DNA from: Naegleria gruberi
Taxonomy: Eukaryota
NCBI GenBank assembly: GCA_000004985.1
Contig: GG738872.1
Length of the DNA stretch: 64,000 nucleotides
Strand: one strand, 5' to 3'
The position numbers and the translations under genes are program-made. Below are positions 1-17,533 of the stretch, in pieces (position 1 is the first letter of the stretch; every line of letters begins with the position of its first letter). The notes beneath the pieces were generated by a model. That model was not told the origin of the DNA. It was given only the letters and a program-made list of their open reading frames with translations, and ran no database searches.

Positions 1-367
1 ACCCAAACCCAAACCCAAACCCAAACCCAAACCCAAACCCAAACCCAAACCCAAACCCAAACCCAAACCCAAACCCAAACCCAAACCCAAACCCAAACCC
101 AAACCCAAACCCAAACCCAAACCCAAACCCAAACCCAAACCCAAACCCAAACCCAAACCCAAACCCAAACCCAAACCCAAACCCAAACCCAAACCCAAAC
201 CCAAACCCAAACCCAAACCCAAACCCAAACCCAAACCCAAACCCAAACCCAAACCCAAACCCAAACCCAAACCCAAACCCAAACCCAAACCCAAACCCAA
301 ACCCAAACCCAAACCCAAACCCAAACCCAAACCCAAACCCAAACCCAAACCCAAACCCAAACCCAAA
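1..367. repeat. Terminal telomeric repeat array (CCCAAA)n, about 61 perfect units; G-strand TTTGGG runs 5'->3' toward the left end. The window starts inside the array.
   Basis: Read directly: a perfect hexamer ACCCAA repeated without interruption from base 1 to about 367. Confidence 0.95.
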
Positions 368-474
368 AACCCAAACCTAAAAACCCAAACCCAAACCCAA
401 ACCTAAAAACCCAAACCTAAAAACCCAAACCTAAAAACCCAAACCTAAAAACCCAAACCTAAAAACCTAAAAAA
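368..474. repeat. Subtelomeric degenerate telomere-variant repeats (about CCCAAACCTAAAAA x5-6, also CCCAAAAA)
   Basis: Read directly: CCCAAA units alternate with CCTAAAAA variants and then end abruptly at TATTTAAG. Confidence 0.85.
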
Positions 475-1168
475 TATTTAAGTCCAGACCCAATGTTTCA
501 AAGTTCAAACCCTAGCCCAATTTATTGATTGTTATATCATTCGATTGTAAATGATGAGTAGAACAATGTATTATATTTAGTTTTTCAATTTATAAAATAT
601 TAACTTTGTAAATAATGTAAGATTAAAAATTTGTAAAATGAAACCATAGGAAGAATGATAATTTCAAAATCCTTTAGTGAGATTATATAGTAAATATCAT
701 CATTAACAACATTTATAATCACTTTCATATCAAATTTCAAAAGTTCAAGTCTGTAGATATAAAAGTATTGAGTGAAAAGGGAAGTAGTGAGGTACAATAG
801 GTCAACTATAACTTTTGAGTTTCTCATCAAAACATATTAAATCCTGACATGAAAATGTTCCATTTGATTAGTAAACATCGAATATCAAATTTATTTTAAC
901 TTTCATATTTAAAGATTTCTTCCCTCAATCACACATATGGTCAACTTGTATGAAAAGGTGGAAATCTTGAAAAAGGACCACCTATTGAAACTTTACCATC
1001 ATGATGTAGATGGTCTATAATGATGTACAATTCAATTTCATATCATAAGAATCAGAAATGGTACCATGGGAATGTAAATGTTGATTTTATAAAGTTGACT
1101 TTAAGGAAAGACAAGTCAGACCAACTCTATCAAATATATCACTTCAATCAATAAATTATATATGAAAA

Positions 1169-4100
1169 NNNNNNNNNNNNNNNNNNNNNNNNNNNNNNNN
1201 NNNNNNNNNNNNNNNNNNNNNNNNNNNNNNNNNNNNNNNNNNNNNNNNNNNNNNNNNNNNNNNNNNNNNNNNNNNNNNNNNNNNNNNNNNNNNNNNNNNN
1301 NNNNNNNNNNNNNNNNNNNNNNNNNNNNNNNNNNNNNNNNNNNNNNNNNNNNNNNNNNNNNNNNNNNNNNNNNNNNNNNNNNNNNNNNNNNNNNNNNNNN
1401 NNNNNNNNNNNNNNNNNNNNNNNNNNNNNNNNNNNNNNNNNNNNNNNNNNNNNNNNNNNNNNNNNNNNNNNNNNNNNNNNNNNNNNNNNNNNNNNNNNNN
1501 NNNNNNNNNNNNNNNNNNNNNNNNNNNNNNNNNNNNNNNNNNNNNNNNNNNNNNNNNNNNNNNNNNNNNNNNNNNNNNNNNNNNNNNNNNNNNNNNNNNN
1601 NNNNNNNNNNNNNNNNNNNNNNNNNNNNNNNNNNNNNNNNNNNNNNNNNNNNNNNNNNNNNNNNNNNNNNNNNNNNNNNNNNNNNNNNNNNNNNNNNNNN
1701 NNNNNNNNNNNNNNNNNNNNNNNNNNNNNNNNNNNNNNNNNNNNNNNNNNNNNNNNNNNNNNNNNNNNNNNNNNNNNNNNNNNNNNNNNNNNNNNNNNNN
1801 NNNNNNNNNNNNNNNNNNNNNNNNNNNNNNNNNNNNNNNNNNNNNNNNNNNNNNNNNNNNNNNNNNNNNNNNNNNNNNNNNNNNNNNNNNNNNNNNNNNN
1901 NNNNNNNNNNNNNNNNNNNNNNNNNNNNNNNNNNNNNNNNNNNNNNNNNNNNNNNNNNNNNNNNNNNNNNNNNNNNNNNNNNNNNNNNNNNNNNNNNNNN
2001 NNNNNNNNNNNNNNNNNNNNNNNNNNNNNNNNNNNNNNNNNNNNNNNNNNNNNNNNNNNNNNNNNNNNNNNNNNNNNNNNNNNNNNNNNNNNNNNNNNNN
2101 NNNNNNNNNNNNNNNNNNNNNNNNNNNNNNNNNNNNNNNNNNNNNNNNNNNNNNNNNNNNNNNNNNNNNNNNNNNNNNNNNNNNNNNNNNNNNNNNNNNN
2201 NNNNNNNNNNNNNNNNNNNNNNNNNNNNNNNNNNNNNNNNNNNNNNNNNNNNNNNNNNNNNNNNNNNNNNNNNNNNNNNNNNNNNNNNNNNNNNNNNNNN
2301 NNNNNNNNNNNNNNNNNNNNNNNNNNNNNNNNNNNNNNNNNNNNNNNNNNNNNNNNNNNNNNNNNNNNNNNNNNNNNNNNNNNNNNNNNNNNNNNNNNNN
2401 NNNNNNNNNNNNNNNNNNNNNNNNNNNNNNNNNNNNNNNNNNNNNNNNNNNNNNNNNNNNNNNNNNNNNNNNNNNNNNNNNNNNNNNNNNNNNNNNNNNN
2501 NNNNNNNNNNNNNNNNNNNNNNNNNNNNNNNNNNNNNNNNNNNNNNNNNNNNNNNNNNNNNNNNNNNNNNNNNNNNNNNNNNNNNNNNNNNNNNNNNNNN
2601 NNNNNNNNNNNNNNNNNNNNNNNNNNNNNNNNNNNNNNNNNNNNNNNNNNNNNNNNNNNNNNNNNNNNNNNNNNNNNNNNNNNNNNNNNNNNNNNNNNNN
2701 NNNNNNNNNNNNNNNNNNNNNNNNNNNNNNNNNNNNNNNNNNNNNNNNNNNNNNNNNNNNNNNNNNNNNNNNNNNNNNNNNNNNNNNNNNNNNNNNNNNN
2801 NNNNNNNNNNNNNNNNNNNNNNNNNNNNNNNNNNNNNNNNNNNNNNNNNNNNNNNNNNNNNNNNNNNNNNNNNNNNNNNNNNNNNNNNNNNNNNNNNNNN
2901 NNNNNNNNNNNNNNNNNNNNNNNNNNNNNNNNNNNNNNNNNNNNNNNNNNNNNNNNNNNNNNNNNNNNNNNNNNNNNNNNNNNNNNNNNNNNNNNNNNNN
3001 NNNNNNNNNNNNNNNNNNNNNNNNNNNNNNNNNNNNNNNNNNNNNNNNNNNNNNNNNNNNNNNNNNNNNNNNNNNNNNNNNNNNNNNNNNNNNNNNNNNN
3101 NNNNNNNNNNNNNNNNNNNNNNNNNNNNNNNNNNNNNNNNNNNNNNNNNNNNNNNNNNNNNNNNNNNNNNNNNNNNNNNNNNNNNNNNNNNNNNNNNNNN
3201 NNNNNNNNNNNNNNNNNNNNNNNNNNNNNNNNNNNNNNNNNNNNNNNNNNNNNNNNNNNNNNNNNNNNNNNNNNNNNNNNNNNNNNNNNNNNNNNNNNNN
3301 NNNNNNNNNNNNNNNNNNNNNNNNNNNNNNNNNNNNNNNNNNNNNNNNNNNNNNNNNNNNNNNNNNNNNNNNNNNNNNNNNNNNNNNNNNNNNNNNNNNN
3401 NNNNNNNNNNNNNNNNNNNNNNNNNNNNNNNNNNNNNNNNNNNNNNNNNNNNNNNNNNNNNNNNNNNNNNNNNNNNNNNNNNNNNNNNNNNNNNNNNNNN
3501 NNNNNNNNNNNNNNNNNNNNNNNNNNNNNNNNNNNNNNNNNNNNNNNNNNNNNNNNNNNNNNNNNNNNNNNNNNNNNNNNNNNNNNNNNNNNNNNNNNNN
3601 NNNNNNNNNNNNNNNNNNNNNNNNNNNNNNNNNNNNNNNNNNNNNNNNNNNNNNNNNNNNNNNNNNNNNNNNNNNNNNNNNNNNNNNNNNNNNNNNNNNN
3701 NNNNNNNNNNNNNNNNNNNNNNNNNNNNNNNNNNNNNNNNNNNNNNNNNNNNNNNNNNNNNNNNNNNNNNNNNNNNNNNNNNNNNNNNNNNNNNNNNNNN
3801 NNNNNNNNNNNNNNNNNNNNNNNNNNNNNNNNNNNNNNNNNNNNNNNNNNNNNNNNNNNNNNNNNNNNNNNNNNNNNNNNNNNNNNNNNNNNNNNNNNNN
3901 NNNNNNNNNNNNNNNNNNNNNNNNNNNNNNNNNNNNNNNNNNNNNNNNNNNNNNNNNNNNNNNNNNNNNNNNNNNNNNNNNNNNNNNNNNNNNNNNNNNN
4001 NNNNNNNNNNNNNNNNNNNNNNNNNNNNNNNNNNNNNNNNNNNNNNNNNNNNNNNNNNNNNNNNNNNNNNNNNNNNNNNNNNNNNNNNNNNNNNNNNNNN

Positions 4101-5508
4101 NNNNNNNNNNNNNNNNNNNNNNNNNNNNNNNNNNNNNNNNNNNNNNNNNNNNNNNNNNNNNNNNNNNNNNNNNNNNNNNNNNNNNNNNNNNNNNNNNNNN
4201 NNNNNNNNNNNNNNNNNNNNNNNNNNNNNNNNNNNNNNNNNNNNNNNNNNNNNNNNNNNNNNNNNNNNNNNNNNNNNNNNNNNNNNNNNNNNNNNNNNNN
4301 NNNNNNNNNNNNNNNNNNNNNNNNNNNNNNNNNNNNNNNNNNNNNNNNNNNNNNNNNNNNNNNNNNNNNNNNNNNNNNNNNNNNNNNNNNNNNNNNNNNN
4401 NNNNNNNNNNNNNNNNNNNNNNNNNNNNNNNNNNNNNNNNNNNNNNNNNNNNNNNNNNNNNNNNNNNNNNNNNNNNNNNNNNNNNNNNNNNNNNNNNNNN
4501 NNNNNNNNNNNNNNNNNNNNNNNNNNNNNNNNNNNNNNNNNNNNNNNNNNNNNNNNNNNNNNNNNNNNNNNNNNNNNNNNNNNNNNNNNNNNNNNNNNNN
4601 NNNNNNNNNNNNNNNNNNNNNNNNNNNNNNNNNNNNNNNNNNNNNNNNNNNNNNNNNNNNNNNNNNNNNNNNNNNNNNNNNNNNNNNNNNNNNNNNNNNN
4701 NNNNNNNNNNNNNNNNNNNNNNNNNNNNNNNNNNNNNNNNNNNNNNNNNNNNNNNNNNNNNNNNNNNNNNNNNNNNNNNNNNNNNNNNNNNNNNNNNNNN
4801 NNNNNNNNNNNNNNNNNNNNNNNNNNNNNNNNNNNNNNNNNNNNNNNNNNNNNNNNNNNNNNNNNNNNNNNNNNNNNNNNNNNNNNNNNNNNNNNNNNNN
4901 NNNNNNNNNNNNNNNNNNNNNNNNNNNNNNNNNNNNNNNNNNNNNNNNNNNNNNNNNNNNNNNNNNNNNNNNNNNNNNNNNNNNNNNNNNNNNNNNNNNN
5001 NNNNNNNNNNNNNNNNNNNNNNNNNNNNNNNNNNNNNNNNNNNNNNNNNNNNNNNNNNNNNNNNNNNNNNNNNNNNNNNNNNNNNNNNNNNNNNNNNNNN
5101 NNNNNNNNNNNNNNNNNNNNNNNNNNNNNNNNNNNNNNNNNNNNNNNNNNNNNNNNNNNNNNNNNNNNNNNNNNNNNNNNNNNNNNNNNNNNNNNNNNNN
5201 NNNNNNNNNNNNNNNNNNNNNNNNNNNNNNNNNNNNNNNNNNNNNNNNNNNNNNNNNNNNNNNNNNNNNNNNNNNNNNNNNNNNNNNNNNNNNNNNNNNN
5301 NNNNNNNNNNNNNNNNNNNNNNNNNNNNNNNNNNNNNNNNNNNNNNNNNNNNNNNNNNNNNNNNNNNNNNNNNNNNNNNNNNNNNNNNNNNNNNNNNNNN
5401 NNNNNNNNNNNNNNNNNNNNNNNNNNNNNNNNNNNNNNNNNNNNNNNNNNNNNNNNNNNNNNNNNNNNNNNNNNNNNNNNNNNNNNNNNNNNNNNNNNNN
5501 NNNNNNNN
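1169..5508. other. Assembly gap (run of N, about 4.3 kb)
   Basis: Continuous n characters. ORF-track entries 1148..5923(-) and 1162..5517(+) are artefacts of translating N. Confidence 0.99.
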
Positions 5509-5872
5509 ACTTTCTAATTTCTCTCAAAGCAACAGTACCTGGCTTATATCTATGTGGCTTTTTAGGAGTACGTGTCTTGCTAATAGTTGATGGTTGTTTT
5601 ATAGCTTTTCTTGGTGCTTTGCCTCCAGTTGATTTTCTTGTTGTTTTTCTTCTTGCTAAAATAGCAGCTTCGGAAGTATTTTTACTTTTTCTAGTATTTC
5701 CTTCGGCTAAATCGGAAGTATTGGAAGAAGAAGGAACATCTGCAGATGAAAAATTTGCAACCACATCAGAAGCGACAGTAGATGAAGAGTTTGTGGTATC
5801 AGATACCATTGAATCATCAGTAGTTTCAGTAATAGAAGAATGAGAAGTAGTATTTCCAGTGATGAGAGTCAT
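5509..5872 (-). CDS. Histone H3 variant with an about 73-aa Ser/Thr/Asp-rich N-terminal extension. It is partial: the histone-fold region is lost in the gap.
   Basis: - Start codon: a true ATG at 5872 (MTLITGNTT...).
- After the extension, the sequence reads [21 protein letters not shown]...[17 protein letters not shown].
- This matches the canonical H3 tail and alphaN region: [18 protein letters not shown]...[19 protein letters not shown].
- The frame stays open into the N run at 5509. Confidence 0.75.
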
Positions 5873-5998
5873 TTTTTTAATTTTGAAAAGGTTATTCGGA
5901 GCATCAATAATTTGTACTCTCACAAAATAACTCTTTCAAATTTTGACCATCTAAAATAATTTCTAAAAAATATTAACCAACCGACAGAACTCTCAACA

Positions 5999-6478
5999 AT
6001 GCCAAAACGATCAGTTACTAAAATCATACCAATGTATGAAAGTATCTACGATTTACCAGTTGTCATGGTTTGTATGAAAGGAGAGAAAATCTCCGATGAA
6101 GCTTTTATTAATCATTTGTATTTTCATTCGAGTGTCTTTTATCCAACCGTTAATGATTGTACCAAAACCATCAACACAATCATGCACGAACTTGAAAATG
6201 TTATAGCAATTAATGATGATTTTATTATTGATGAAATTCCAAATCCTATGGATTTAAAAGAAAAGCTCCAACTCTCAAGAAAAGCAAATAGATTAGCTAT
6301 TTATTCATTAAAGACAATGATTATGATGGAATCAAAGATGTTTAATGCTTTGTTTCAAAAGAAACCATCTATGAATCAATTAAACAAGGCTCACAAATTC
6401 CAAAATGTAATTCATTTGGAAATTGATGAAGAAGATGTTTCCGAAAATGAAATGACCATTTGGAAAAATAAAGAATAA
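5999..6478 (+). CDS. Hypothetical 159-aa protein with no recognisable domain
   Basis: ATG-initiated ORF between the H3 variant and the recombinase ORF. No motif recognised. Could be part of the same element or spurious. Confidence 0.25.
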   Translation: MPKRSVTKIIPMYESIYDLPVVMVCMKGEKISDEAFINHLYFHSSVFYPTVNDCTKTINTIMHELENVIAINDDFIIDEIPNPMDLKEKLQLSRKANRLAIYSLKTMIMMESKMFNALFQKKPSMNQLNKAHKFQNVIHLEIDEEDVSENEMTIWKNKE

Positions 6479-6537
6479 TTTTATTAATATAAATTAATAT
6501 CCTTAATAAATATTGTTTATTAATTAATTATATAAAA

Positions 6538-9303
6538 TTAATCATCAATATAGTCATCTAAAGGGTATATATAATCATTAAAGTAACGTAAAACCATACT
6601 TTCATCAACAAAGTTATCGAAAGGTTCCCATGTTGATTGTTTGTAACCATAACCTTGCCATTTTACAAGGTAATTGAAATATTTTGGTAATAAAAGATCA
6701 GAATCAATATCTATATCTTTTTCGATTAATTGATGGTCTAAAATCTCATCAACTACAAATATATCATCTGTTTGAGTATCTTGTAAATCTGAAGAATCAG
6801 CTGAAGAATCATCTGACATATCTGCCCATCTCCTTTTGGTACCTCCTTTCTTTTCCTTCTTGGATCTAAAAGAGGAACATTTCTTATATTCTTCTGGTGT
6901 CATTTTAAATTCAGAGAAGAACTTTTGCAAATCTTCAGGATTTAATGGGATGGTTACACCATCAAACCAATGATGATCTTTCAAATAACGATTCACATGT
7001 GAAACCAAATCTTCAAAAAACACATCCCTTTCTGAACTATTCCAATAACTATTTAGTAATATCTTGAATTTTGTAATAACCCGACTTTTTACCTTCCAAT
7101 AATTTTTGTTGAATTGTTTTTTATCTTCCTCTGTAACAATTTCAAGATCTGAAAATGCCATAAGAGATCTATAGATAGATCCCATGAAATTAGTAGTTTC
7201 TGTTAATGCAACCGTCTTTCCAAAAAGAAACTTCAGTTTCGGTATGTTGTCAATTAGCCAAGTCTTGCATTTGAAATCAACTCTTGTTTGTGGAAGTGAT
7301 TTTCTTTGAGAAATTATATTCTTGTTTGTTTGAGGAATATTCATAAATCCAACGCTCTCATCAATACATTCATCTCTCATAAATAGATATTTGAAAGGTA
7401 CGCAACCATTAGGATTGGATTTTCTAGATGTTATATATGAAGATGGTGACAATTCAACATTCAAAATATTATGAAAAGTAGTTTCCAATGTATCAGATGA
7501 TGAAAATCCATAATCTTGAATAGATCCTTGAACATATTGAAATATCATCTGCCGATGATGTACAGTATCTGCAAGGTACCTCTCTGGTAGTTGGTTGAAT
7601 ATTTTGAAAGCATATCTTTCATATGATTTAATTGAGCGCTTACTGACATGTCCTAGCATGAATGAAATTGCACTCTTTGTTTGCTCTTGCACAATATGGT
7701 TTCGAATAATATCAACCAACATGTTTTCTACCACAATACCAGATCTACCAGCACGTGCACAATACATGACATTTAAAATTCTCTTGGTGATATTTCTAAT
7801 ATATTCTGATATTCCATTTGAACAACATTGAGATTTAGATTGTTTTTTGAAAAATAAAAATTCTTTCACTACATCATTCTTAAATGTGAATTTACCATCT
7901 GAAATGAATTTTTCCCAATTAGAATTAAAGTTGGCAAATATCTCAGAACGAGTGTACCACAAATAATATAATAAAATGAATGATGAACAGAGAGTATGAT
8001 TCTGCTTTCCAAATATTGACACATTCCTTGATGAAGTGGTTGTACGCTTGTCTTTCTTCACTTCCATAGAAGTGTGAATAACGAACCATTTATCATCATT
8101 AAGATAATATTCAACTTTTTGAAATTTTACATCTTCAAGTCTTATCCAAATAAGAGAATCTCCTCTCATTCCAGTAGCTCGAATAACATGCATGATGGCA
8201 ACATCAGTAAGATCTTCAACTTTTGTCAAATCAGCAGCATAGGTAACTTTGTAGACCTCAGAAAACATCATTGGAGCAACTTTGTACACTTCACACCCAT
8301 ATAATCGAATCAAGCCCATTGTTGTTTGTTGAATAGCTTCCTTAAATAGAATGACTGGACTTTCACCGAATTTAGGATGTCTTTTTATGAATTTGTTCAA
8401 TCCATACACAAAGCACCCTTTCATTGTCTTATGCGAAAAACCACTAGCTCGACTGAATATCAAAAATCTAAGGTAGGTTATCTTTTCAATAGGGAATGGT
8501 TTCGGTTGAATCTTTGACCACGCTGTTTTGCCTTTGATTTGTTCTTTCCAAAACGACACATAGACAATTCCTGAATAAGCTTCAAATTGTCTAGTATTGA
8601 TATGCTTATGAAGCTTCATTACAGTGACAACCTTGGAAATATCTTCATCCAAATCATCAACAATTGTTAAATCTAAATTTGAATCAATTTCCTCATTGAA
8701 CTCTGGTCGAATAACAGCAGATTTCTTTTTTTTTGGAGTATAGCTTGCCACAAGGAGATCTTCAACATCATAATCAATTAAGCTAGCTTCCAAATTGTCA
8801 TTGATCTCTTCTAACATCTTTTCCTTCTCTTTCGGTGATGATGATTCTACATTACGAATAAGGGATTCTTTTCGAATTTCTTCATCAGTCATTTCGGGAG
8901 GGTTATCCATCTTGTTCATTCTTTCAATCTCTTGTAAAATATCTGACACAACATCCTTTTGATGCATATAAGGCTGTATCATTGTGTCTAAATCTTTAAT
9001 TGATTGAGCAACACCAATAAAATTGTTATTATGATTTAATAATGCCATTATGTGATGAAATGACTGCATAGTAAACTCAGCATCCAAACAATAAGTAACT
9101 CCGTTATAATCAACATTGATTGATTTGGAGCCAATATACTCCTTGTTGTTTAGCAAATCATTCATTTGATAAACTCGCGATGATGAGTTCTTTGATACTA
9201 AGGCGCTCTCATCCTGTTGAGTTGGTGGGAGTTCACCGGTTGGTGAATGGTTGTTGTTGGTGCAATCACTTAAATGAGAGCTTGTAGATGATGATGGAAG
9301 CAT
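6538..9303 (-). CDS. Tyrosine-recombinase-like protein (Crypton/DIRS-type YR core) with a C-terminal chromodomain, 921 aa
   Basis: - Start codon: a true ATG at 9303.
- YR box I-like segment: HVIRATGMRGDSLIWIRLEDV.
- YR box II-like segment: YCARAGRSGIVVENMLVDIIRNH...LGHVSKRSIKSYERY (LGH ... catalytic Tyr pattern).
- C-terminal segment DIFVVDEILDHQLIEK...YFNYLVKWQGYGYKQSTWEPFDNF...LRYF fits the chromodomain consensus (YxVExIL...YLVKWKGY...TWEP.N).
- No RT/RNaseH motifs are present in this ORF. Confidence 0.65.
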   Translation of the reverse strand: MLPSSSTSSHLSDCTNNNHSPTGELPPTQQDESALVSKNSSSRVYQMNDLLNNKEYIGSKSINVDYNGVTYCLDAEFTMQSFHHIMALLNHNNNFIGVAQSIKDLDTMIQPYMHQKDVVSDILQEIERMNKMDNPPEMTDEEIRKESLIRNVESSSPKEKEKMLEEINDNLEASLIDYDVEDLLVASYTPKKKKSAVIRPEFNEEIDSNLDLTIVDDLDEDISKVVTVMKLHKHINTRQFEAYSGIVYVSFWKEQIKGKTAWSKIQPKPFPIEKITYLRFLIFSRASGFSHKTMKGCFVYGLNKFIKRHPKFGESPVILFKEAIQQTTMGLIRLYGCEVYKVAPMMFSEVYKVTYAADLTKVEDLTDVAIMHVIRATGMRGDSLIWIRLEDVKFQKVEYYLNDDKWFVIHTSMEVKKDKRTTTSSRNVSIFGKQNHTLCSSFILLYYLWYTRSEIFANFNSNWEKFISDGKFTFKNDVVKEFLFFKKQSKSQCCSNGISEYIRNITKRILNVMYCARAGRSGIVVENMLVDIIRNHIVQEQTKSAISFMLGHVSKRSIKSYERYAFKIFNQLPERYLADTVHHRQMIFQYVQGSIQDYGFSSSDTLETTFHNILNVELSPSSYITSRKSNPNGCVPFKYLFMRDECIDESVGFMNIPQTNKNIISQRKSLPQTRVDFKCKTWLIDNIPKLKFLFGKTVALTETTNFMGSIYRSLMAFSDLEIVTEEDKKQFNKNYWKVKSRVITKFKILLNSYWNSSERDVFFEDLVSHVNRYLKDHHWFDGVTIPLNPEDLQKFFSEFKMTPEEYKKCSSFRSKKEKKGGTKRRWADMSDDSSADSSDLQDTQTDDIFVVDEILDHQLIEKDIDIDSDLLLPKYFNYLVKWQGYGYKQSTWEPFDNFVDESMVLRYFNDYIYPLDDYIDD

Positions 9304-9393
9304 TTTTTTGAGAGAAAATCCCCGAAATTTCCATTAAGGCAACTTTACAAAGTGAGCCCTCTTTGAGTATTCATAAATATAGGCAATTATCGT

Positions 9394-9420
9394 GCAAGAA
9401 GGCCTTTGTGGCCTTCCTGC
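9394..9420. repeat. Imperfect palindrome / hairpin: GCAAGAAGGCC - TTTGT - GGCCTTCCTGC (10 of 11 positions pair)
   Basis: Read directly. Sits about 90-120 bp upstream of the ATG of the recombinase ORF (minus strand). Confidence 0.6.
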
Positions 9421-9705
9421 ATCAATATCTCATCCAAGTAATAATATTTATATATATAAAATTGGCAAACAGCATTCAATTTATTCAAATATTGATGTAG
9501 ACAGGTAAAAATGTCAATAATGTCATTTTTTTTACCTTACTGAAAAATGACCTGTTTTTGAAAAGCTCCCATTCAATGAGTTCAGTGAATTAGAACTGAA
9601 TTTCTGTACGATAATGTAGTAATTGAAGTCTATTACGATATCTGAAAAATTCAATATCCCAATATTTAAACAACAAATCTGGGTAATGTAATTAGCCTGC
9701 AGTCT

Positions 9706-9731
9706 CCCAAACCCAAACCCAAACCCAAACC
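9706..9731. repeat. Interstitial telomeric repeat, (CCCAAA)x4.3, same orientation as the terminal array
   Basis: Read directly: cccaaacccaaacccaaacccaaacc. It is immediately followed, in frame, by homology to the receptor cyclase-like family. Confidence 0.9.
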
Positions 9732-10238
9732 TATTGCTCGCCTATTAGAAGAACACTATGGAACTAGTTTGAATATTAAATGCAATACCAAGTATTTAAT
9801 TTCATCAGAAACTGATTACATTTCAATTTACAGATTATATACAGATACTGATGTTGATTGGTAAGTAACCTAAACGAGTTAGATATAATAATTGTTCAAA
9901 ATAGGTTGTTTGTGTTAGCAGTTCCTCAATGGAATTACATTAGGTCAATTGTTATTGCTGTAATTTGTGCTATTGTTGGTGCCACATTCATTGTCACAAC
10001 AGGTGTAGCCATTTCCATCTTCATTTCAGTCAGATTAGTGAAACCATTTTACAATTTGATTGATTTATTCGAAAGTGTCTCTCATATGGATTTGGATAAT
10101 TTAGAAATTCATGATTCCAAATTTACAGAAGTGAAACAGTTACAAACTCATTTCAAAACCATGACAGACAGAATCAAACTTTACAGAGCTTTCATACCAT
10201 CACATTTACAAGTAATTTTGTCTCATTCATTTTATTAA
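9732..10238 (+). pseudogene. Truncated relic of a receptor-type cyclase-homology family gene: only the juxtamembrane/TM/linker portion, in 2 exons (9732..9860 and 9905..10238, with a 44-nt GTAAGT...TAG intron)
   Basis: - The fragment translates as ...LEEHYGTSLNIKCNTKYLISSETDYISIYRLYTDTDVDW|LFVLAVPQWNYIRS...VKPFYNLIDLFESVSHMDLD...RIKLYRAFIPSHLQ.
- It matches the paralog at 14687..15973: LDHYSNDWTKITCNEMQVLERSGQYISIYRLCTSSKIDWILVLSVPQWNY...VKPFYNLIELFESVANMDLD...RIKLYKSFIPAHLL.
- It also matches the paralog at 53385..55883.
- The N-terminal ectodomain exons are missing, and there is no room downstream for the cyclase domain. Confidence 0.6.
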
Positions 10239-10547
10239 TGTTACTAAGCTCTCTCTCCATATTTGAATTGCCAGCTTGTAGTATTAAGCGGAGAGAATCT
10301 CCCGTTTAGAATAAGAAACGGCCTGAATCCCGTTCATCCCGTTGCCCGTCTCACCGTTTATTTGTATCAACTCATACTGCTACATATTTCATATTGCATT
10401 GATTCAAATCCAATTTCAGAACAAAAACGAATGTATTTGATAGAATTTGTAAAGAGTTCTTGTTATTTTGGGGTTAGTCTTTGATTCCTCTGTATTCAAA
10501 ATGCACCATTGAGAGAAAACGGAAGCTTGTGTAATAAAAGGTTCATT

Positions 10548-13500
10548 CTACCAATTACTGTTGTTTATTAAGNNNNNNNNNNNNNNNNNNNNNNNNNNNN
10601 NNNNNNNNNNNNNNNNNNNNNNNNNNNNNNNNNNNNNNNNNNNNNNNNNNNNNNNNNNNNNNNNNNNNNNNNNNNNNNNNNNNNNNNNNNNNNNNNNNNN
10701 NNNNNNNNNNNNNNNNNNNNNNNNNNNNNNNNNNNNNNNNNNNNNNNNNNNNNNNNNNNNNNNNNNNNNNNNNNNNNNNNNNNNNNNNNNNNNNNNNNNN
10801 NNNNNNNCATTATTTGTAATGACAGAGGTAATGACTAATGATATCAAAGTAATACAAGCAGGTAATAAAAGTGTTGGCATGTTCATCAATCTCAAAATCT
10901 CAGTCAATGCCTCAGCAACTCCACTTTGAGTAATTGCTGCCGCAATTCCAAAAGATGCTCCAACCAATGTCACTAATCTCCATTCCACACAATCAACTGC
11001 TCTCGTTGGTGTTATCAATCCAAATGCAACGACTGCACAGAATGTCACAAGTGTACATTGAACCATTGGAAATCCAGCAATGGCGCATCCAATCATTGCT
11101 AAAAAGAATGGGAAAATCCAATGTTCCCACCACCACAAATCTAAAATGATTTTAGTGAAGGGAATTCTGAATAGAAATGGTTTTTGTTTGAATTGGTTGT
11201 AATCTGGTGAGATTTCGTTAAATCTTGTAATGAGATAGAAATCCTTTGAATTGTCATGATTATTATGGTAGAAAACACTTTTACCCAAAATTAGAATAGT
11301 ATCACCACAATATACTGTTTTGCAATTGACGTGTGAATCCTTATCGTTGGTTTCTTTAGTATCAATTGAGGAGGAACCAACTTGTCTGATGGCTAATACT
11401 TTGACTTGATATCTTCTTTCGAATTCCAAATAAGTTTCTCCTAAACATGGATTTGAAGCTCCAATAACAACCTGGAAGAATTCAGGTTCATTTTCTTGAA
11501 TTTCAGATTGATTAGTTTTAGATTTTTCATTGGAGAGAGCTGCATCTCCATAATTCTTCTTGATATTATGATGTAATTGATTAGTGACTGGATTTTCAGC
11601 TTGTGGTGATGTTGTTGGTGAATCAATTAAATGGTCTTGAGATGTTGAAGAAGCCACGCAACTGCTCTGTGAAATTCTTCCTTCTTCCATTGGAGATTCA
11701 ACACTCAAAAAGGAAGTAGTGCTTTGACCTGTTGCCATTTTAGGTTCTTCTTTTTGGTTGACTGATTCAGAACTTTCAAAAGTTGATTTTTCAATTTCAG
11801 AACCATCATACACAAGTGAATGCAAACGTAAAATTAATTGAGGAGCTCCTTGGAAAACCAAAATATCAGAACTTTCCAATTTTAGATCTAAAGGAACTGG
11901 TGAAATTTTTTCAAGCCCAGCAACAGTTTCGTTTGTTGCTGGAATAATTGTATTCGAAGAAGTAGAGCTATTTGAAGAGTTTGTGGATTGCTCTGGACTT
12001 TCCTTAGGTTCTTCTACCTTAATTTCAATAGATTCTCCATTGGAAATTACATTTGGTTCGCTTGAAGTTGTTGGTTGACTTGAAGATTGTACACTGCTCA
12101 ATTCAACTTGATTGGTTGATTTCTTTTCTCTCAAAATTTCAATCAAATCCAAGTTGCCTATTCCCAACTCTGACATGGCTTTGACTTTGGTCTTTCCATT
12201 CAAAGTTTCAAATAATGTTTTACCTTTCGAATACTTTGGTTGAGAAGCCAAATATTCCATCTTGACAATGGTAACGAAAGTTTCCGAATGTTCTCTCACA
12301 ACTTCTCTTGCACGTTCCTTTTTACTTTTATGAGCAAAAGTAACCTTTGAAGCATTAAACTTTGAAGTCACTCCTTCATTAGGAACAATCCACAATGTAT
12401 AAGTGCAACAATAAATAATTGTAATGAAACATAAAATGGCGCCAACATAAACAAACTCATAAAAGGATAAAGGAGTGTAACCATATTGAGTATAGATACC
12501 ATTTGCAACAATACTTGCTGAAGTTCCAATATATGTCAACAATCCACCTCCATTTGTTGCGAATAAAAGTGACATGAGAAATTTGGTATGTGAAAGTTTG
12601 TGTGTCCTTGCCCATTCCATAATGATAGGAATTCCTGTGGCCACAACTGGAGTATTCGATACAAATGCACTAAAAATGGTAAAAACAAAACAAATTCTTA
12701 AAGTTGGTGGTATGAGTGAAATAAAATTGAGAAATTTGTTTTTGGAATTTTTGAATTTCAATGGGGAACCAAATAAAAGTCTGGCAAATTTCAAAACTAG
12801 GGTATTTTCACTTAATGGTTTGACGATTGGGAAGAGGAGAGCAACGATGAGAGTACCAGTGTTGGAAAAACCACTTAAGGCATCTGTAACACTGACAATA
12901 CCTGCCAGATTAAAAATGACAAGTGTCATAACCACAATAAAGTAAGGTCTCCAAAGAGAAACAACCAGACAGACTAGCATTAGGATGACCATGCATAGTA
13001 CGAACCATAATTTCCATGAATTCCATGAAAATGCAACTACAGGTGACGTGGATCCACAAATATTATTGATGGATGAGCTTGTTAACACTGTATCTATGCT
13101 CACAGATTGATTCAGCTGTTGAATGGTAGTAAAGTTGTAGTTTAGATTCTTAGAAGGAACTTGTGCTTGTAAATCGTTGAAAGCATTCACCAATTCTTGA
13201 CTAAACATTCCACTTTCAATCTTGTTTCTAATATCAGCAAGGTCGAGTTTGACTAGAAACCATTGAATTGCATAGGAATTTGTAAACAACTCTGGAATAT
13301 CCAAGTATTTGGTAGAATTCATGAATGCATTCTTACTTGTCGTTCCATTTATATGAAAAACCATCTTTTCATATGTCAAATCCATTCCACTTTTTGTTTG
13401 AATGACAGAAATTGGATATTCTTGAAGGAGAGAAGTTCTGGAAGGAAGAAAGAGTGAATTTTGATATTTTGTGGAAAGTAAGTTATTATGGATGATTCTA

Positions 13501-13964
13501 AAATAGTAAAAACTTAGTGTTTCGTTCGTTTCGTGCAAACTTTCGACATGTTCATCAAATAGAAACTTCCAAGAAATTGTTCCTTGTCCGTGTTCATAAC
13601 TCAATGAAACATAACTAATGGTAGTGCTTGCATTTATGGTAGAACTCTTATAATTCGTATCGTCATTCGAATAGTAAACACTCTCGGATATATTTTTGGT
13701 AAACTCGGTGGAAAATTGATAAATTTGACCATTTACAAATGCAGATGAAGTAGAAATACAATTATCCAATCGAATAGGATGATTTAGCAAGTTTGCAAGT
13801 GATAAAATGATGAAAATGCTTGAAATGCAAGCAAATACGAAACTGTGGAGTTTCATCTTTTTTTCTTTCGAATTGTTAGATGAGAAGGAAGAGATTCGTC
13901 CTGTTGAAATGCAAAAGGGCACAACTGTGGCCATGCTGGACTCGTTTTCTATACTATTTGGCAT
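10548..13964 (-). CDS. Anion permease of the CitMHS / ArsB-NhaD (SLC13-like) superfamily. Two permease halves are separated by a cytoplasmic loop with two TrkA-C (RCK_C) domains, and there is an about 330-aa N-terminal ectodomain after a signal anchor.
   Basis: - Start codon: a true ATG at 13964.
- First multi-TM block: CMVILMLVCLV...GIPIIMEWARTHKLSHTKF...ATNGGGLLTYIGTSASIV.
- TrkA-C-like segment: FFQVVIGASNPCLGETYLEFERRYQVKVLAIRQ...CGDTILILGKS.
- Second TM block: WWEHWIFPFFLAMIGCAIAG...VTLVGASFGIAAAITQSGVAEAL.
- The C-terminus is interrupted by the N gap, so the 3' end is uncertain. Confidence 0.6.
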   Translation of the reverse strand: MPNSIENESSMATVVPFCISTGRISSFSSNNSKEKKMKLHSFVFACISSIFIILSLANLLNHPIRLDNCISTSSAFVNGQIYQFSTEFTKNISESVYYSNDDTNYKSSTINASTTISYVSLSYEHGQGTISWKFLFDEHVESLHETNETLSFYYFRIIHNNLLSTKYQNSLFLPSRTSLLQEYPISVIQTKSGMDLTYEKMVFHINGTTSKNAFMNSTKYLDIPELFTNSYAIQWFLVKLDLADIRNKIESGMFSQELVNAFNDLQAQVPSKNLNYNFTTIQQLNQSVSIDTVLTSSSINNICGSTSPVVAFSWNSWKLWFVLCMVILMLVCLVVSLWRPYFIVVMTLVIFNLAGIVSVTDALSGFSNTGTLIVALLFPIVKPLSENTLVLKFARLLFGSPLKFKNSKNKFLNFISLIPPTLRICFVFTIFSAFVSNTPVVATGIPIIMEWARTHKLSHTKFLMSLLFATNGGGLLTYIGTSASIVANGIYTQYGYTPLSFYEFVYVGAILCFITIIYCCTYTLWIVPNEGVTSKFNASKVTFAHKSKKERAREVVREHSETFVTIVKMEYLASQPKYSKGKTLFETLNGKTKVKAMSELGIGNLDLIEILREKKSTNQVELSSVQSSSQPTTSSEPNVISNGESIEIKVEEPKESPEQSTNSSNSSTSSNTIIPATNETVAGLEKISPVPLDLKLESSDILVFQGAPQLILRLHSLVYDGSEIEKSTFESSESVNQKEEPKMATGQSTTSFLSVESPMEEGRISQSSCVASSTSQDHLIDSPTTSPQAENPVTNQLHHNIKKNYGDAALSNEKSKTNQSEIQENEPEFFQVVIGASNPCLGETYLEFERRYQVKVLAIRQVGSSSIDTKETNDKDSHVNCKTVYCGDTILILGKSVFYHNNHDNSKDFYLITRFNEISPDYNQFKQKPFLFRIPFTKIILDLWWWEHWIFPFFLAMIGCAIAGFPMVQCTLVTFCAVVAFGLITPTRAVDCVEWRLVTLVGASFGIAAAITQSGVAEALTEILRLMNMPTLLLPACITLISLVITSVITNNXXXXXXXXXXXXXXXXXXXXXXXXXXXXXXXXXXXXXXXXXXXXXXXXXXXXXXXXXXXXXXXXXXXXXXXXXXXXXXXLINNSNW
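10573..10807. other. Assembly gap (235 N)
   Basis: Run of n. It interrupts the 3' end of the transporter gene. Confidence 0.99.
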
Positions 13965-14686
13965 GTTGGTTCGATCTTTCGAATATAAATTATAATTATT
14001 AATTTTCGGATAGTGCGGAACTTGAAAAGGAAAGCATCAAGGATATTGTAAAGTTAATTCCTTTCGACCTTTGGCAATAAAATTATTCAACTCCGCAATC
14101 ACACTTTCTATTAGGTCAAAGTCTTTCGAATAACAAAAAGAAAAACTATTAGAAACCAGCAGAAACTATTCGTCTTGTTTTTTTACAACTTAACTCTTCC
14201 CATTGACTTCCGCCCAGTGATGATGAGTAATTGTGTTCACTCTTCAAATCGTTCCCAAAACAAATTTGCAATCCAACAAACGAATTTGGCCATGGAAAGT
14301 CATTAGAATAGGCAGCCATAAAAGAATGCAATGAAAAATCTGGTTTATTCGTTCACATATGGACTCGTTCACAAATTTCGTTGTGGGAATTGAATCTACA
14401 TTTTTGGAATGAAAAAAATGCTAGACGATACTTTTGAAGAATCCTTTCGAATAGTTCTTGTTGGAATTACATGAAACACAATTACATTTTGCTTTCACAT
14501 TGTCTTAGTAAATGAAGTGTAGGTCCATCATGTGGATTTTGTTGATAGAAAGTTTGAAGAATCGAATAAGCTTGTTTGTAATCTTGTTGTAGGAATAATC
14601 TGGATGCTTGTAGATAATCATGCCATTGAGATTGTTTGTTCTTTTCTTGGAGTTCGTACATCCACTTTGTTTTTGAATCAGTTTAA

Positions 14687-17128
14687 TCAACACATTCGAA
14701 ATTTAACACAAAAAGTTATTGGAAAGGTCAAAAACAGAAAAGGACTTACCTCATCGTCGTTCACTTTCAAAGAAGATCCCAATTCATAGATATTTGTTAG
14801 CACGCCAGTATTTGGAGTCTTGTATTCGTCAGTTTTTCCATTGAGCGAGTTTAAATTAGTTTCGTCTAGTAATTCTTTGGAATCTACATATCTGATTTGG
14901 AACAATTGTTCACATTTTTCCTTAATCTTCTCACTTACTACAATACTAACATTCAGTTGAATTGCAATTTGAGTCAATTGATCCAAATTTTGTTTGGCGC
15001 TCGAAATTATTGTAAAGTTTTTCAATTCGTTCGTTCCAATATTTCCACAATAGGAAGATTGTGATAAAACTGCAATTTTAAATGACATTAAATCCAATAA
15101 TTGTGAATTCTTCTTGAAACTGTTTAATAAGGTTGAGGCAGCGACAACTCCTTTTTCTTCATGATTCGTCTGATTATTCGAAGAGTTAAACGAAATGGTG
15201 ATTGATTCATTTTCAAAGTTTCCAACGTTTCCTGTCAAACTTCTACTCACACTATTAATCTGTTCAAAAATATCTGACATTAGCTCAATAGTTTCGTTTG
15301 GATTCATATTTTGCAACCATTCAGTAAATCCATTAAAATGAATCTGGACGAAAGTTACCTTCTTCTGTTCCATATACAAGGAAAACTTGCTTCTATCATT
15401 CTTATATACTTTCCTTGAGGATCTTGCTTTATGAGAAATTCCTTTACTGGAATTAGAACTTCCCACTGATTGAGTTTCCTGACTTGACATGTTGTGCGAA
15501 GATCCTCCGTAGACTTTAGTTCTGGAATTCTTTCGGAAAGATTCGTCTACTTCACTGTCTGATTCTTGGATACCATCTACATTTTCAATTTCTGAAAGTA
15601 AGTGAGCTGGAATAAAACTCTTGTAAAGTTTGATTCGGTTGACCATGGAAATGAAATGTCCTTGTAATTGTTTCACTTCTGAGAATGAACTTGGAATAAT
15701 GTGAAGTTGATCCAAATCCATATTAGCAACACTTTCGAATAACTCTATCAAATTATAAAACGGCTTGACAACTTTTAAGGAAACAACAACTCCCAAGACT
15801 AAACCAACCGAAATGATGAGAACACTACCAATCAATGAGCAGATAATTGCAAAAATTGTCGATCCTAAATAATTCCATTGAGGGACACTCAACACTAATA
15901 TCCAATCAATTTTTGAGCTAGTACACAATCTATATATGGAAATGTATTGTCCACTACGTTCGAGAACTTGCATTTCATTGCAAGTTATTTTAGTCCAATC
16001 ATTCGAATAATGATCAAGAATAGCTTGAGAAATTGCGTTGATTTTGGTATCTGAAACATCGGTTGGTGTTTTTCTATCTAATGATCCATCTGATTTCCAA
16101 TCTGAAATTGTAACTTCCTCTCTGTCAACTATTTCCCATAAACTTTACAATAAAAATTTATGTAACTTACCTGCAATCAAATAAGCAGTTTCAGTTTCCA
16201 CAATAAATCCTAAAGATCCAGTAATGGATGCAATTCTTTCTTTCAAAAAGTCTGAAATCGATGACACTGTCAAATCATTTGCTTGATAATAGTGAAAATT
16301 GTGTCCGTTAGGAAGAGGAAGTTTCTTATTTACGACACAATTCATGGAAGTGATGAATGTGTATTGAGGCATTGAAATGTCAGCATAACTCAATGTAAAA
16401 ACTTGTTGACCTGGATTAGCATCACAGACCTCAACGAGATAGCTCACATCGAATGGCTTGTTGGTTTCGTCTGGATTAGAATTTCTAACACACTGTTCGT
16501 GATTGGTAATGTTGTCGCAATAATAGATTAATTGAGCTGTTGATGTGATATTAAAAGTGGCCAAATAATCTCCCCACTCAATTGATCCAAAGCATGTTTT
16601 ATCTGTACCTCCCACATATGAGGAAATTGTAATTCCCTTCAAATGTTTTTGAGATGACTAATGGCAATTTGAAGGTATTTCATTAATTTTCATGAATTTT
16701 TCATATTTTGAATATGAGAATAGGAATCAATAAACTTTGCTTACCTTGTAGCCTGCAAACATAATCCTCTCCAAATAATCGAAATTTCCATACGAATAAT
16801 CATCAGTTGCCAATTGTTGTTTAATGGCCTCATTCAATACATTAACTTCTTTGAGTGTTTGCTCTGCATATTTGACAATGGTTGAAAACTCTTCGTCTCT
16901 CACTGTTGATGATAAACTGACAACTGTTGGAGAAAAACTTGCCAACCAAATGGCAGATAGGATCAAAACACTGAGGAAGAGTAAACCAGATACCATGACA
17001 ATCATACAAAATTTGATGGAAGTTCCCTTAGTTGAGCCTCCTGTGTAGGAACTTGTTTCTTGATTCTTATCCATTATGGCTTGTTTATCCTCTTGTGAGG
17101 TTGGTGTTACCTTGTTCTTTAATTTCAT
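14687..17128 (-). CDS. Receptor-type cyclase-homology (pseudo-cyclase) protein, about 760 aa, 3 exons. Exon 1 is 16745..17128. Exon 2 is 16171..16636. Exon 3 is 14690..16128, or 14690..16089 with an alternative in-frame acceptor.
   Basis: - Start codon: ATG at 17128.
- Intron 1 donor: AAG|GTAAGC. Intron 1 acceptor: tttgaag|GGAATT.
- Intron 2 donor: GCAG|GTAAGT. Intron 2 acceptor: gggaaatag|TTGAC.
- Architecture: N-terminal cytosolic stretch, signal-anchor TM, ectodomain, second TM (ILVLSVPQWNY...), HAMP-like linker, then a class III nucleotidyl-cyclase-like domain.
- Cyclase-like motifs: VTFVQIHFNGFTEW ... GNVGNFENESITISF ... FKIAVLSQSSYCGNIGTNELKNFTIISSAKQNL.
- The canonical metal-binding Asp residues are replaced: D->H/Q in the first motif, and IGD->FEN in the second.
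- Paralogous to the gene at 53385..55883. Confidence 0.6.
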
Positions 17129-17533
17129 GAATGTGCGCTTATGTTTGTATTATATACCTAATGATGTTTTTAGAGTTTCCTCAGTAAATTTGTAAATTGT
17201 CTGATGCTAGTGTAGATGTTTGGAAATTTCTTTTGATTTGAATTTGCTCTCCTGTAGGAATGTTGATGCCCATCAACACGAAATAAACTCTTAAGTCACA
17301 ATGTATTTCTTATTTGCGTTCGAGTTGTTGCAAAAGGTTTAAAGCATTAATAGGTATTGATTGACTGTTGGTGATACCTGTTGATTGCGAGCGAAAACTA
17401 TTTTGCTGCGAAGCATAATGCATACTTTTAATGATGGTGTGTTTATTATTGGTTATAAATAAGAGGAGGGTTATTGTAGTGGGTAGGCGGGGAATAAAAA
17501 AGGGATTATACAAAAAAGGAGATGTGTAACTAA

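Follow-up and report, generated by a model that had tools for sequence, protein, structure and literature searches.

Introduction

To our knowledge, all telomere-specific elements known so far, among them HeT-A/TART, SART/TRAS, the Penelope-like Athena/Terminons and TATE (telomere-associated transposable element), are retroelements. [quoted passage not shown] The kinetoplastid hosts of TATE and the amoeba Naegleria both belong to the Discoba. TATE itself, from Leishmania braziliensis and other kinetoplastids, is a YR retroelement that occupies one fixed position within the telomeric hexamer and sometimes occurs as tandem copies (PMC6681497). In the Enterprise Starship of Podospora anserina, the YR Kirc carries a zinc finger and a C-terminal chromodomain in addition to its core-binding domain (PMC8092012). 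Here we analyze a 64,000-nucleotide stretch of Naegleria gruberi DNA (hereafter the window; GenBank assembly GCA_000004985.1, contig GG738872.1), in which a 9.2-kb block at 475-9705 lies between telomere repeats and encodes a 921-aa YR-chromodomain protein. We assign a probability of roughly 55% to the reading that this block is one copy of a candidate Crypton/Starship-like DNA element that lacks reverse transcriptase (RT) and targets telomere repeats.

Results

The window is the left end of a 413-kb N. gruberi scaffold, with the G strand (TTTGGG) directed outward. This hexamer is the published candidate telomere repeat of the species (PMC3622300). A telomere pattern search over the terminal array gave 61 matches against 0 expected. 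The perfect interstitial telomere repeat (ITS) that forms the proximal boundary of the block has the orientation of the terminal array and is the sole such site in 64 kb, with an expectation of 0.00 in dinucleotide shuffles. The original prediction, which had placed a recombinase-chromodomain gene, a histone H3-tail gene and a small open reading frame (ORF) between these two repeats, was accurate in both its layout and its gene content (Table 1).

The 921-aa ORF belongs to a family that word-indexed protein searches barely reached, returning one relative for the single query and two fragments for the family profile. Exhaustive HMMER searching of 1.84 billion proteins exposed the family as ~35 proteins with the YR core. 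The sources looked up were N. lovaniensis (XP_044547223), N. fowleri (two loci that encode the same 520-aa product), Willaertia magna (six paralogues) and metagenome/SRA assemblies; by sequence similarity, the family is confined to heteroloboseans and environmental relatives. A query with a 2-sequence alignment found no relatives in JGI metagenome contigs or IMG/VR viral contigs, so at that sensitivity there is no sign of a viral origin.

We compared 13 loci (the window, L001-L009, L011, L012/L013 and L014) and found the YR at (TTTGGG)n chromosome ends in 11. The array lies 0.085-7.9 kb downstream of the YR at nine of these loci, and the YR points its 3' end toward the telomere at 10 of 11. 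The chance of such proximity to contig ends, taken as a product over the ten genome-assembly copies, is ~1e-21. No telomere repeat was present on two short metagenome contigs, L001 and L014. The YR is the only gene common to the loci; flanking host genes are unrelated and not syntenic. Copies away from telomeres, or conserved synteny pointing to a host gene, had been named as grounds for rejecting a telomere-targeted element. Instead, the relatives are almost all the last gene before (TTTGGG)n, in flanks that differ from locus to locus.

Table 1. Features of the window and of related loci. TRF, Tandem Repeats Finder. Distances run from the YR stop codon to the telomere array.
Locus	Feature	Position or distance	Strand	Evidence or remark
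Window, N. gruberi	Terminal telomere array (CCCAAA)n / (ACCCAA)n	1-463	+	TRF: 75 copies, 92% matches
Window	Degenerate array base, 14-nt variant repeats CCCAAACCTAAAAA	~360-474	+	Direct-repeat family D2, spacing 14; sequence read directly
Window	Distal unique segment, 0.7 kb	475-1168	.	No convincing ORF
Window	Assembly gap, 4340 N	1169-5508		
Window	H3 variant, 5' part, 121 aa, cut by gap	5510-5872	-	Pfam Histone E=9e-4 on fragment
Window	Orphan 159-aa ORF, XP_002676322, divergent from H3 variant gene	5999-6478	+	No Pfam match
Window	921-aa YR-chromodomain protein, XP_002676414, intronless, 3' end toward telomere	6538-9303	-	
Window	C-terminal chromodomain, aa 849-902	6598-6759	-	Pfam Chromo E=4.7e-10
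Window	YR core, aa 221-586: core-binding and catalytic domains	7546-8643	-	
Window	Non-coding proximal block end, 402 bp, upstream of YR start codon	9304-9705	.	Sequence
Window	ITS (CCCAAA)4.3, 26 nt, perfect; proximal block boundary	9706-9731	+	TRF and pattern search
Window	Receptor-cyclase-like gene relic, outside block	9732-10210	+	Inverted repeats I1/I2; tblastx
Window	Stop codon to array	~6.1 kb		Gap included
L008, L009, N. fowleri	Stop codon to array	85 bp		
L007, W. magna	Stop codon to array	0.26 kb		
L006, W. magna	Stop codon to array	0.5 kb		
L004, W. magna	Stop codon to array	1.35 kb		
L012/L013, environmental	Stop codon to array	2.0 kb		
L002, N. lovaniensis	Stop codon to array	5.8 kb		
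L011, W. magna	Stop codon to array	7.9 kb		
L005, W. magna	Downstream of YR			ITS, then sequence 99.3% identical to L006 pre-telomeric end
L003, W. magna	Distance from contig end	119 bp		Inward-facing ITS
L008, N. fowleri	Proximal ITS	7000-7015		
L009, N. fowleri	Proximal ITS	8897-8912		
L007, W. magna	Proximal ITS	7770-7783		
L003, W. magna	Proximal ITS	4380-4399		
L003, W. magna	H3 variant beside YR relative	2607-3086	-	Pfam Histone 7e-30

The 921-aa ORF is 100% identical to N. gruberi XP_002676414 / D2VHF4 (NAEGRDRAFT_68309, predicted protein). Sequence models were insufficient to assign it, and its identification as a YR required a fold search. Pfam Phage_integrase scored 17.1 bits, below its cutoff of 27.1, and this sub-threshold match and Chromo were the only Pfam matches at E<=1; there was therefore no match to DUF3435. 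None of 17 family members passed the curated threshold of any YR hidden Markov model (HMM), the best being NDC10_II at 23.9 against 26.3. Searched against PDB sequences, the family profile had no match and the single protein matched chromodomain proteins only. An AlphaFold2 model of aa 221-586, built from an 11-sequence alignment, reached a predicted local distance difference test score (pLDDT) of 86 and a predicted template modeling score of 0.71. The model has the two-domain YR fold, a helical core-binding domain and a catalytic domain with a beta-hairpin. In the fold search it was matched by type IB topoisomerases (score ~11), Flp (9.5), an ALOG domain (8.7), Crypton-derived QRICH1 (8.4), Ndc10 (7.8) and protelomerases (6.3), and its matches among viral structures were integrases. 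Beyond the YR core, the full-length model was poor (pLDDT 58), leaving aa 1-220 and 587-848 uninformative.

The conserved residues of the core are R380, K417/K419, R517, R520, H552 and Y561. Across the 11 aligned sequences, R380 (GxRGDS), K417/K419 (KDK after the beta-hairpin), R517, G522 and Y561 (Y.R) are invariant, and R520 (in RSxRSG) is nearly so. H552 alternates with Trp among relatives, a diagnostic His/Trp switch before the Tyr that resembles Cre and Flp versus lambda Int. The family departs from the classical catalytic set R-K-H-R-H/W-Y in having an Arg (R517) in place of the first His, and the resulting pattern, R-K-(R)-R-H/W-Y, is kept although the aligned sequences are only 19-45% identical to the query. 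Two of the motifs on which the original prediction had relied, ATGMRGDS (aa 376-383) and LGHVSKRSIKSYERY (aa 550-564), are present as described, but its 'RNH' is not the catalytic box, which is ARAGRSG (aa 516-522). The modeled fold, together with the catalytic residues, identifies the ORF as a true YR, which would be expected to be catalytically active. The recombinase call is thus borne out, although the HMM comparison proposed as its check yielded no recombinase model above a curated threshold.

The C-terminal chromodomain, also predicted from the letters alone, is well supported: Pfam Chromo scored 39.7 bits, above the gathering score of 25.1, and PDB matches were to CBX2/4/6/7/8 and HP1. 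In an alignment to HP1, CBX1 and Pc sequences, F849, W882 and Y885 appear to fall at the positions of the HP1 aromatic cage, and a 12-residue insert separates the first two strands. On sequence grounds, we regard the domain as genuine. Within the family, it is restricted to the window protein (P0001) and, in diverged form, its closest relative P0002, whose C-terminal chromodomain-like motif received no Pfam call. The supposition that a YR-chromodomain fusion was undescribed was mistaken, because the Enterprise captain Kirc is already such a YR, with its chromodomain at the C terminus (PMC8092012). On the P0002 contig (L001, metagenome contig k141_2014556), a Tet/JBP-type dioxygenase gene (5989-7074, minus strand) lies convergently 1 kb downstream of P0002. 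A link between Tet/JBP enzymes and the YR family was not retained, since the gene seen at L001 has no counterpart in the window or at any of the other loci.

The ITS-bounded terminal block foreseen in the original prediction recurs in three species (N. gruberi, N. fowleri and W. magna), with a proximal ITS at 5 of 11 telomere-associated loci. In N. fowleri, the two ends bear no relation to each other as far as a 15-nt GGGTTTGGGTTTGGG, beyond which they are 93% and then 99.4% identical as far as the telomere. In W. magna, L007 and L003 share the ITS and ~170 bp of homologous block start. A different event connects two other W. magna ends. The 573 bp distal of the ITS in L005 (15333-15905) are a 99.3% copy of L006 12286-12858, and the copied stretch starts within the 3' end of the L006 YR gene, at a TTTGGG-like tract. 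These alignments show that W. magna chromosome ends are copied from one another by a repeat-primed route.

The chromosomal side of the window ITS also bears on how the block arose. A gene relic adjoins the repeat and shows 35-55% amino acid identity by tblastx, over 9742-10208, to an intact paralogue at 14687-16021 (minus strand). The relic comprises the transmembrane and HAMP-like part, is truncated on both sides, and loses homology after ~470 bp. Because its homology to the paralogue begins no more than 10 nt from the ITS, the ITS marks the site of an earlier break that received a telomere cap and was once a real chromosome end. The 9.2-kb block lies distal to this old, healed end.

No terminal inverted or direct repeats beyond chance were found between the block ends, telomere repeats apart; such repeats had been suggested as a mark of the element's boundaries. 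We also found no second copy of the block within the 64-kb window, no similarity of segment 475-1168 to the proximal end of the block or to other loci, and no Rfam families or tRNAs in window positions 1-20000. Outside the block, a second assembly gap (235 N, 10573-10807) interrupts a 1138-aa transporter-like ORF at 10548-13964 (minus strand).

A search of the genome for further copies had been proposed as a check; in the annotated N. gruberi proteome, the YR and its 159-aa neighbor are each single-copy. Among the other genomes, W. magna has six copies and N. fowleri two, and all of these are at telomeres. Intact and dead copies occur side by side. The N. fowleri genes contain in-frame stops and are cut by the telomere within the catalytic domain, so that RSxRSG and the catalytic His and Tyr are missing. 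In W. magna, several copies have broken up into 2-4 ORF pieces. Intact-looking copies are those of N. gruberi and N. lovaniensis and three in W. magna. Comparison of the N. lovaniensis and N. fowleri genes gave pN 0.19 and pS 0.70 (proportions of nonsynonymous and synonymous differences) and a ratio of the corresponding rates, dN/dS, of ~0.1, which indicates that the protein was under purifying selection until recently. In a neighbor-joining tree, a Naegleria-type group that includes the chromodomain branch stands apart from a Willaertia-type group, and the W. magna paralogues are deeply separated (25-71% identity).

The H3-tail gene and the small ORF of no known kind are also present where they had been predicted. 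In the H3 variant, a Ser/Thr-rich extension of ~73 aa precedes an H3 tail that is 56% identical to H3 residues 5-54. The fragment covers the tail and the start of alpha-N, and since the gene runs into the gap, the gap must hold the histone-fold part. For the 159-aa ORF, the only match among 5.8 billion proteins was to itself. At one W. magna locus (L003), the block has the gene set of the window, a YR, a divergent H3 variant and a divergently placed small ORF, with the YR on the opposite side and inverted. The W. magna H3 variant is CenH3-like in its divergence (43% to H3, longer loop 1), whereas that of N. gruberi has a near-canonical tail behind its long extension. The YR thus adjoins an H3 variant in two genera. 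We did not accept homology between the 159-aa ORF and the W. magna ORF at the equivalent position, which share only a 12-aa N-terminal motif (E=0.015).

Several other features of these chromosome ends deserve mention. At four W. magna ends (L004 13823, L006 12854, L007 12616, L011 20319), the array starts in one register, '...C|TTGGGTTTGGG', next to unrelated flanks; this common register suggests that telomeres are added, or crossovers fall, at a fixed point. The telomere base of the N. lovaniensis locus (L002, PYSW02000027; ~17600-17724) consists of (TTTATTGGG)n variant repeats, and a pogo/Tc5-type DDE_1 transposase gene (12023-13285, minus strand) lies between the YR and the telomere. Metagenome contig Ga0496810_07603 (L014, relative P0004) ends at ~4390-4471 in a 12-nt tandem repeat, (GAAGTTCTTGTA)n, that is not TTTGGG and lies 0.5 kb downstream of the P0004 gene; that organism could have another kind of terminal or subterminal repeat. 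Finally, annotated N. fowleri 'proteins' of 474 aa (L008 11649-14191) and 549 aa (L009 11649-13298) are translated TTTGGG arrays, and so are annotation artefacts in the public record.

Discussion

The case for a telomere-targeting DNA element draws on features seen at the loci: the YR fold and residues, the chromodomain, telomere adjacency and orientation, ITS-bounded blocks, and past purifying selection with decayed copies. By sequence, the sole constant gene of the candidate element is the divergent YR. Its loci are confined to chromosome ends (11 of 13), keep a fixed orientation (10 of 11) and are bounded by telomere repeats in three species. We propose that the YR would join an excised, probably circular, element to the chromosome through recombination within TTTGGG repeats. 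The integrated element would then lie between a short proximal ITS and the terminal array, giving the order chromosome, short repeat, block, terminal array, and its orientation would be fixed by the asymmetry of the TTTGGG repeat. The YR of the N. gruberi lineage has gained a C-terminal chromodomain, which would tether it to methyl-lysine-marked subtelomeric chromatin, by analogy with Kirc and with chromoviral integrases; for the latter, a role of the C-terminal chromodomain in steering integration toward heterochromatin has been proposed (Gao et al. 2008). The H3 variant and the 159-aa ORF would be carried genes or neighbors. Catalytic activity, the circular intermediate, the use of telomere repeats as the recombination site and the role of the chromodomain are the conjectural parts of this scheme. 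Of the telomere targeting put forward in the original prediction, the adjacency of relatives to telomeres and their ITS boundaries stand; transposition is putative, and passive copying of chromosome ends is still a live alternative.

A number of observations weigh against such an element. There are no near-identical dispersed copies, no pair of empty and filled sites and no circle junction, and the annotated N. gruberi proteome holds one copy each of the YR and the 159-aa ORF. The paralogues are deeply diverged (19-50% amino acid identity) and W. magna copies resemble one another mostly within the coding region, a picture closer to that of an old gene family than to that of a transposon with recent activity; the neighbor-joining tree roughly tracks taxonomy, which is consistent with vertical descent. 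A proximal ITS was unseen at 6 of 11 loci (L002, L004, L005, L006, L011, L012/L013), with up to 10 kb of upstream sequence checked at the five genome loci and ~0.8 kb at L012/L013. Given that end copying at telomere repeats takes place in W. magna, ITS-bounded blocks could arise without a recombinase, and the equal length of the two N. fowleri ITSs is not what crossover at a random telomere position predicts. P0002, the sole close relative with a chromodomain-like motif, sits on a 7.9-kb contig without telomere repeats. In the window itself, the telomere contig is joined to the genes across the 4.3-kb gap.

The main rival account is a resident subtelomeric gene family, possibly domesticated (for example in end-to-end recombination), rather than a transposon. 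The genes would have spread passively through break-induced replication primed on the telomere repeats of short or broken ends, with junctions keeping an ITS, and the 9.2-kb block would be a subtelomeric duplication or a healing product. We consider this account possible, if on balance unlikely. In addition to the divergence, tree topology, coding-only homology between paralogous loci and single annotated N. gruberi copy, it draws support from the dN/dS of ~0.1, from the copied L005 end and from the position of the window ITS against a broken gene relic, that is, at a healed break; the yeast Y' elements and fungal telomere-linked helicase genes are also ITS-bounded. It fails to explain why a site-specific recombinase, of all genes, is the one constant terminal gene in four species with unrelated flanks, or why its catalytic residues are conserved. 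In its annotated assembly, N. fowleri apparently tolerates telomere-truncated copies only, which argues against an essential host function, and a targeting-type chromodomain on a recombinase is otherwise a feature of mobile elements. A simpler error, in which 1-1168 was misjoined during scaffolding or a chance microsatellite lies beside an ordinary gene, is extremely improbable. Because the 4340-N gap intervenes, scaffolding alone ties the telomere contig to the genes. However, the proximal boundary is a perfect 26-nt repeat with zero expectation, and independent assemblies from three other species and two metagenomes place relatives beside TTTGGG on contiguous sequence.

The presence of TATE, with YR and RT/RNase H, in telomeres of the related Euglenozoa raises the alternative of a DIRS/TATE-like YR retrotransposon whose RT/RNase H lies within the 4.3-kb gap, which is large enough to hold it. 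One N. fowleri end (L008, VFQX01000033) does have an RT/RNase H ORF beside the YR (7722-9554; Pfam RNase_H 1e-13, RVT_1 1e-6). This ORF is 5'-truncated, runs on the strand opposite to the YR and lies in a 1.9-kb insertion (7701-9596) that is missing from L009, an end otherwise 93-99% identical; a retroelement therefore landed secondarily inside the terminal block. No RT/RNase H was found in the readable part of the window block or beside relatives other than that at L008; this holds for the complete copies of W. magna, N. lovaniensis and the environmental contigs. That complete relatives lack these genes makes it unlikely that the gap conceals them, as the original prediction had suggested. 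Moreover, the ITS-to-telomere blocks of 2.75 kb (L009) and 4.8 kb (L007) are too small for an RT, and split or inverted terminal repeats are absent. Taken together, these data leave a YR retrotransposon very unlikely.

A bolder form of the DNA-element reading is that vahlkampfiid amoebae carry an unrecognized class of DNA element whose YR integrates into telomere repeats and which forms the terminal block of many chromosomes; in N. gruberi, its YR would read histone methylation and the element would carry its own H3 variant. We hold this to be doubtful as a whole. If true, such an element could shape, or be co-opted into, chromatin and maintenance of chromosome ends, like Drosophila HeT-A/TART but at the DNA level. 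The association of the YR with an H3 variant in two genera deserves attention and is not explained by the present interpretation. In practical terms, the YR family is a marker of chromosome ends in Naegleria and Willaertia genomes, including that of the pathogen N. fowleri, and it raises the question of whether a TTTGGG-recognizing recombinase is active in subtelomere turnover.

A limited literature search found no prior description of telomere-adjacent recombinase genes in Heterolobosea. What is new is a divergent YR family tied to chromosome ends, one branch of which is fused to a chromodomain; the YR-chromodomain architecture is already known. Compared with the well-studied recombinases Cre, Xer and lambda Int, the window YR carries its catalytic Arg, Lys, Arg, His/Trp and Tyr in the secondary-structure elements where they are expected. 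It differs from them in its low identity (10-16%), the replacement of the first His of HxxR by Arg, and its long N- and C-terminal extensions. Chromoviruses (Ty3/gypsy) and Maverick/Polinton elements likewise place a C-terminal chromodomain on a DNA-joining enzyme, but that enzyme is a DDE integrase, not a YR. The budding yeast Y' elements and fungal telomere-linked helicase genes resemble the present loci in forming a terminal coding block behind an ITS, but encode helicases rather than a site-specific recombinase. Their presence varies among chromosome ends, and they spread by end-to-end recombination.

TATE, considered here together with the VIPER-like YR retroelements, is the closest functional precedent, since both it and the heterolobosean family are telomeric and encode a YR. 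TATE also has Gag-like and RT/RNase H ORFs, which the heterolobosean loci lack, and the likeness lies in enzyme type and location. With Cryptons, the family shares the YR as its only constant gene, without RT or long terminal repeats in the readable sequence. Cryptons are dispersed, whereas the heterolobosean family is telomere-restricted and its junction sequences are telomere repeats. A Starship captain is the first gene at one edge of its element and reads into it, followed by cargo. The window YR is placed in a captain-like way: it starts 402 bp from the boundary ITS and reads into the block, where the other genes follow. Starships are fungal, span 15-700 kb and are defined by DUF3435 captains, and the target of the heterolobosean element would be telomere repeats. 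Kirc has a zinc finger, while no central zinc finger was detected in the 921-aa ORF, and the chromodomain occurs here only in the P0001/P0002 branch. If the reading of a telomere-targeting DNA element is correct, the Crypton/Starship-like range would extend to Heterolobosea, with a second, independent YR-chromodomain fusion, and RT-less site-specific recombination on telomere repeats would represent a different route to the telomere niche.

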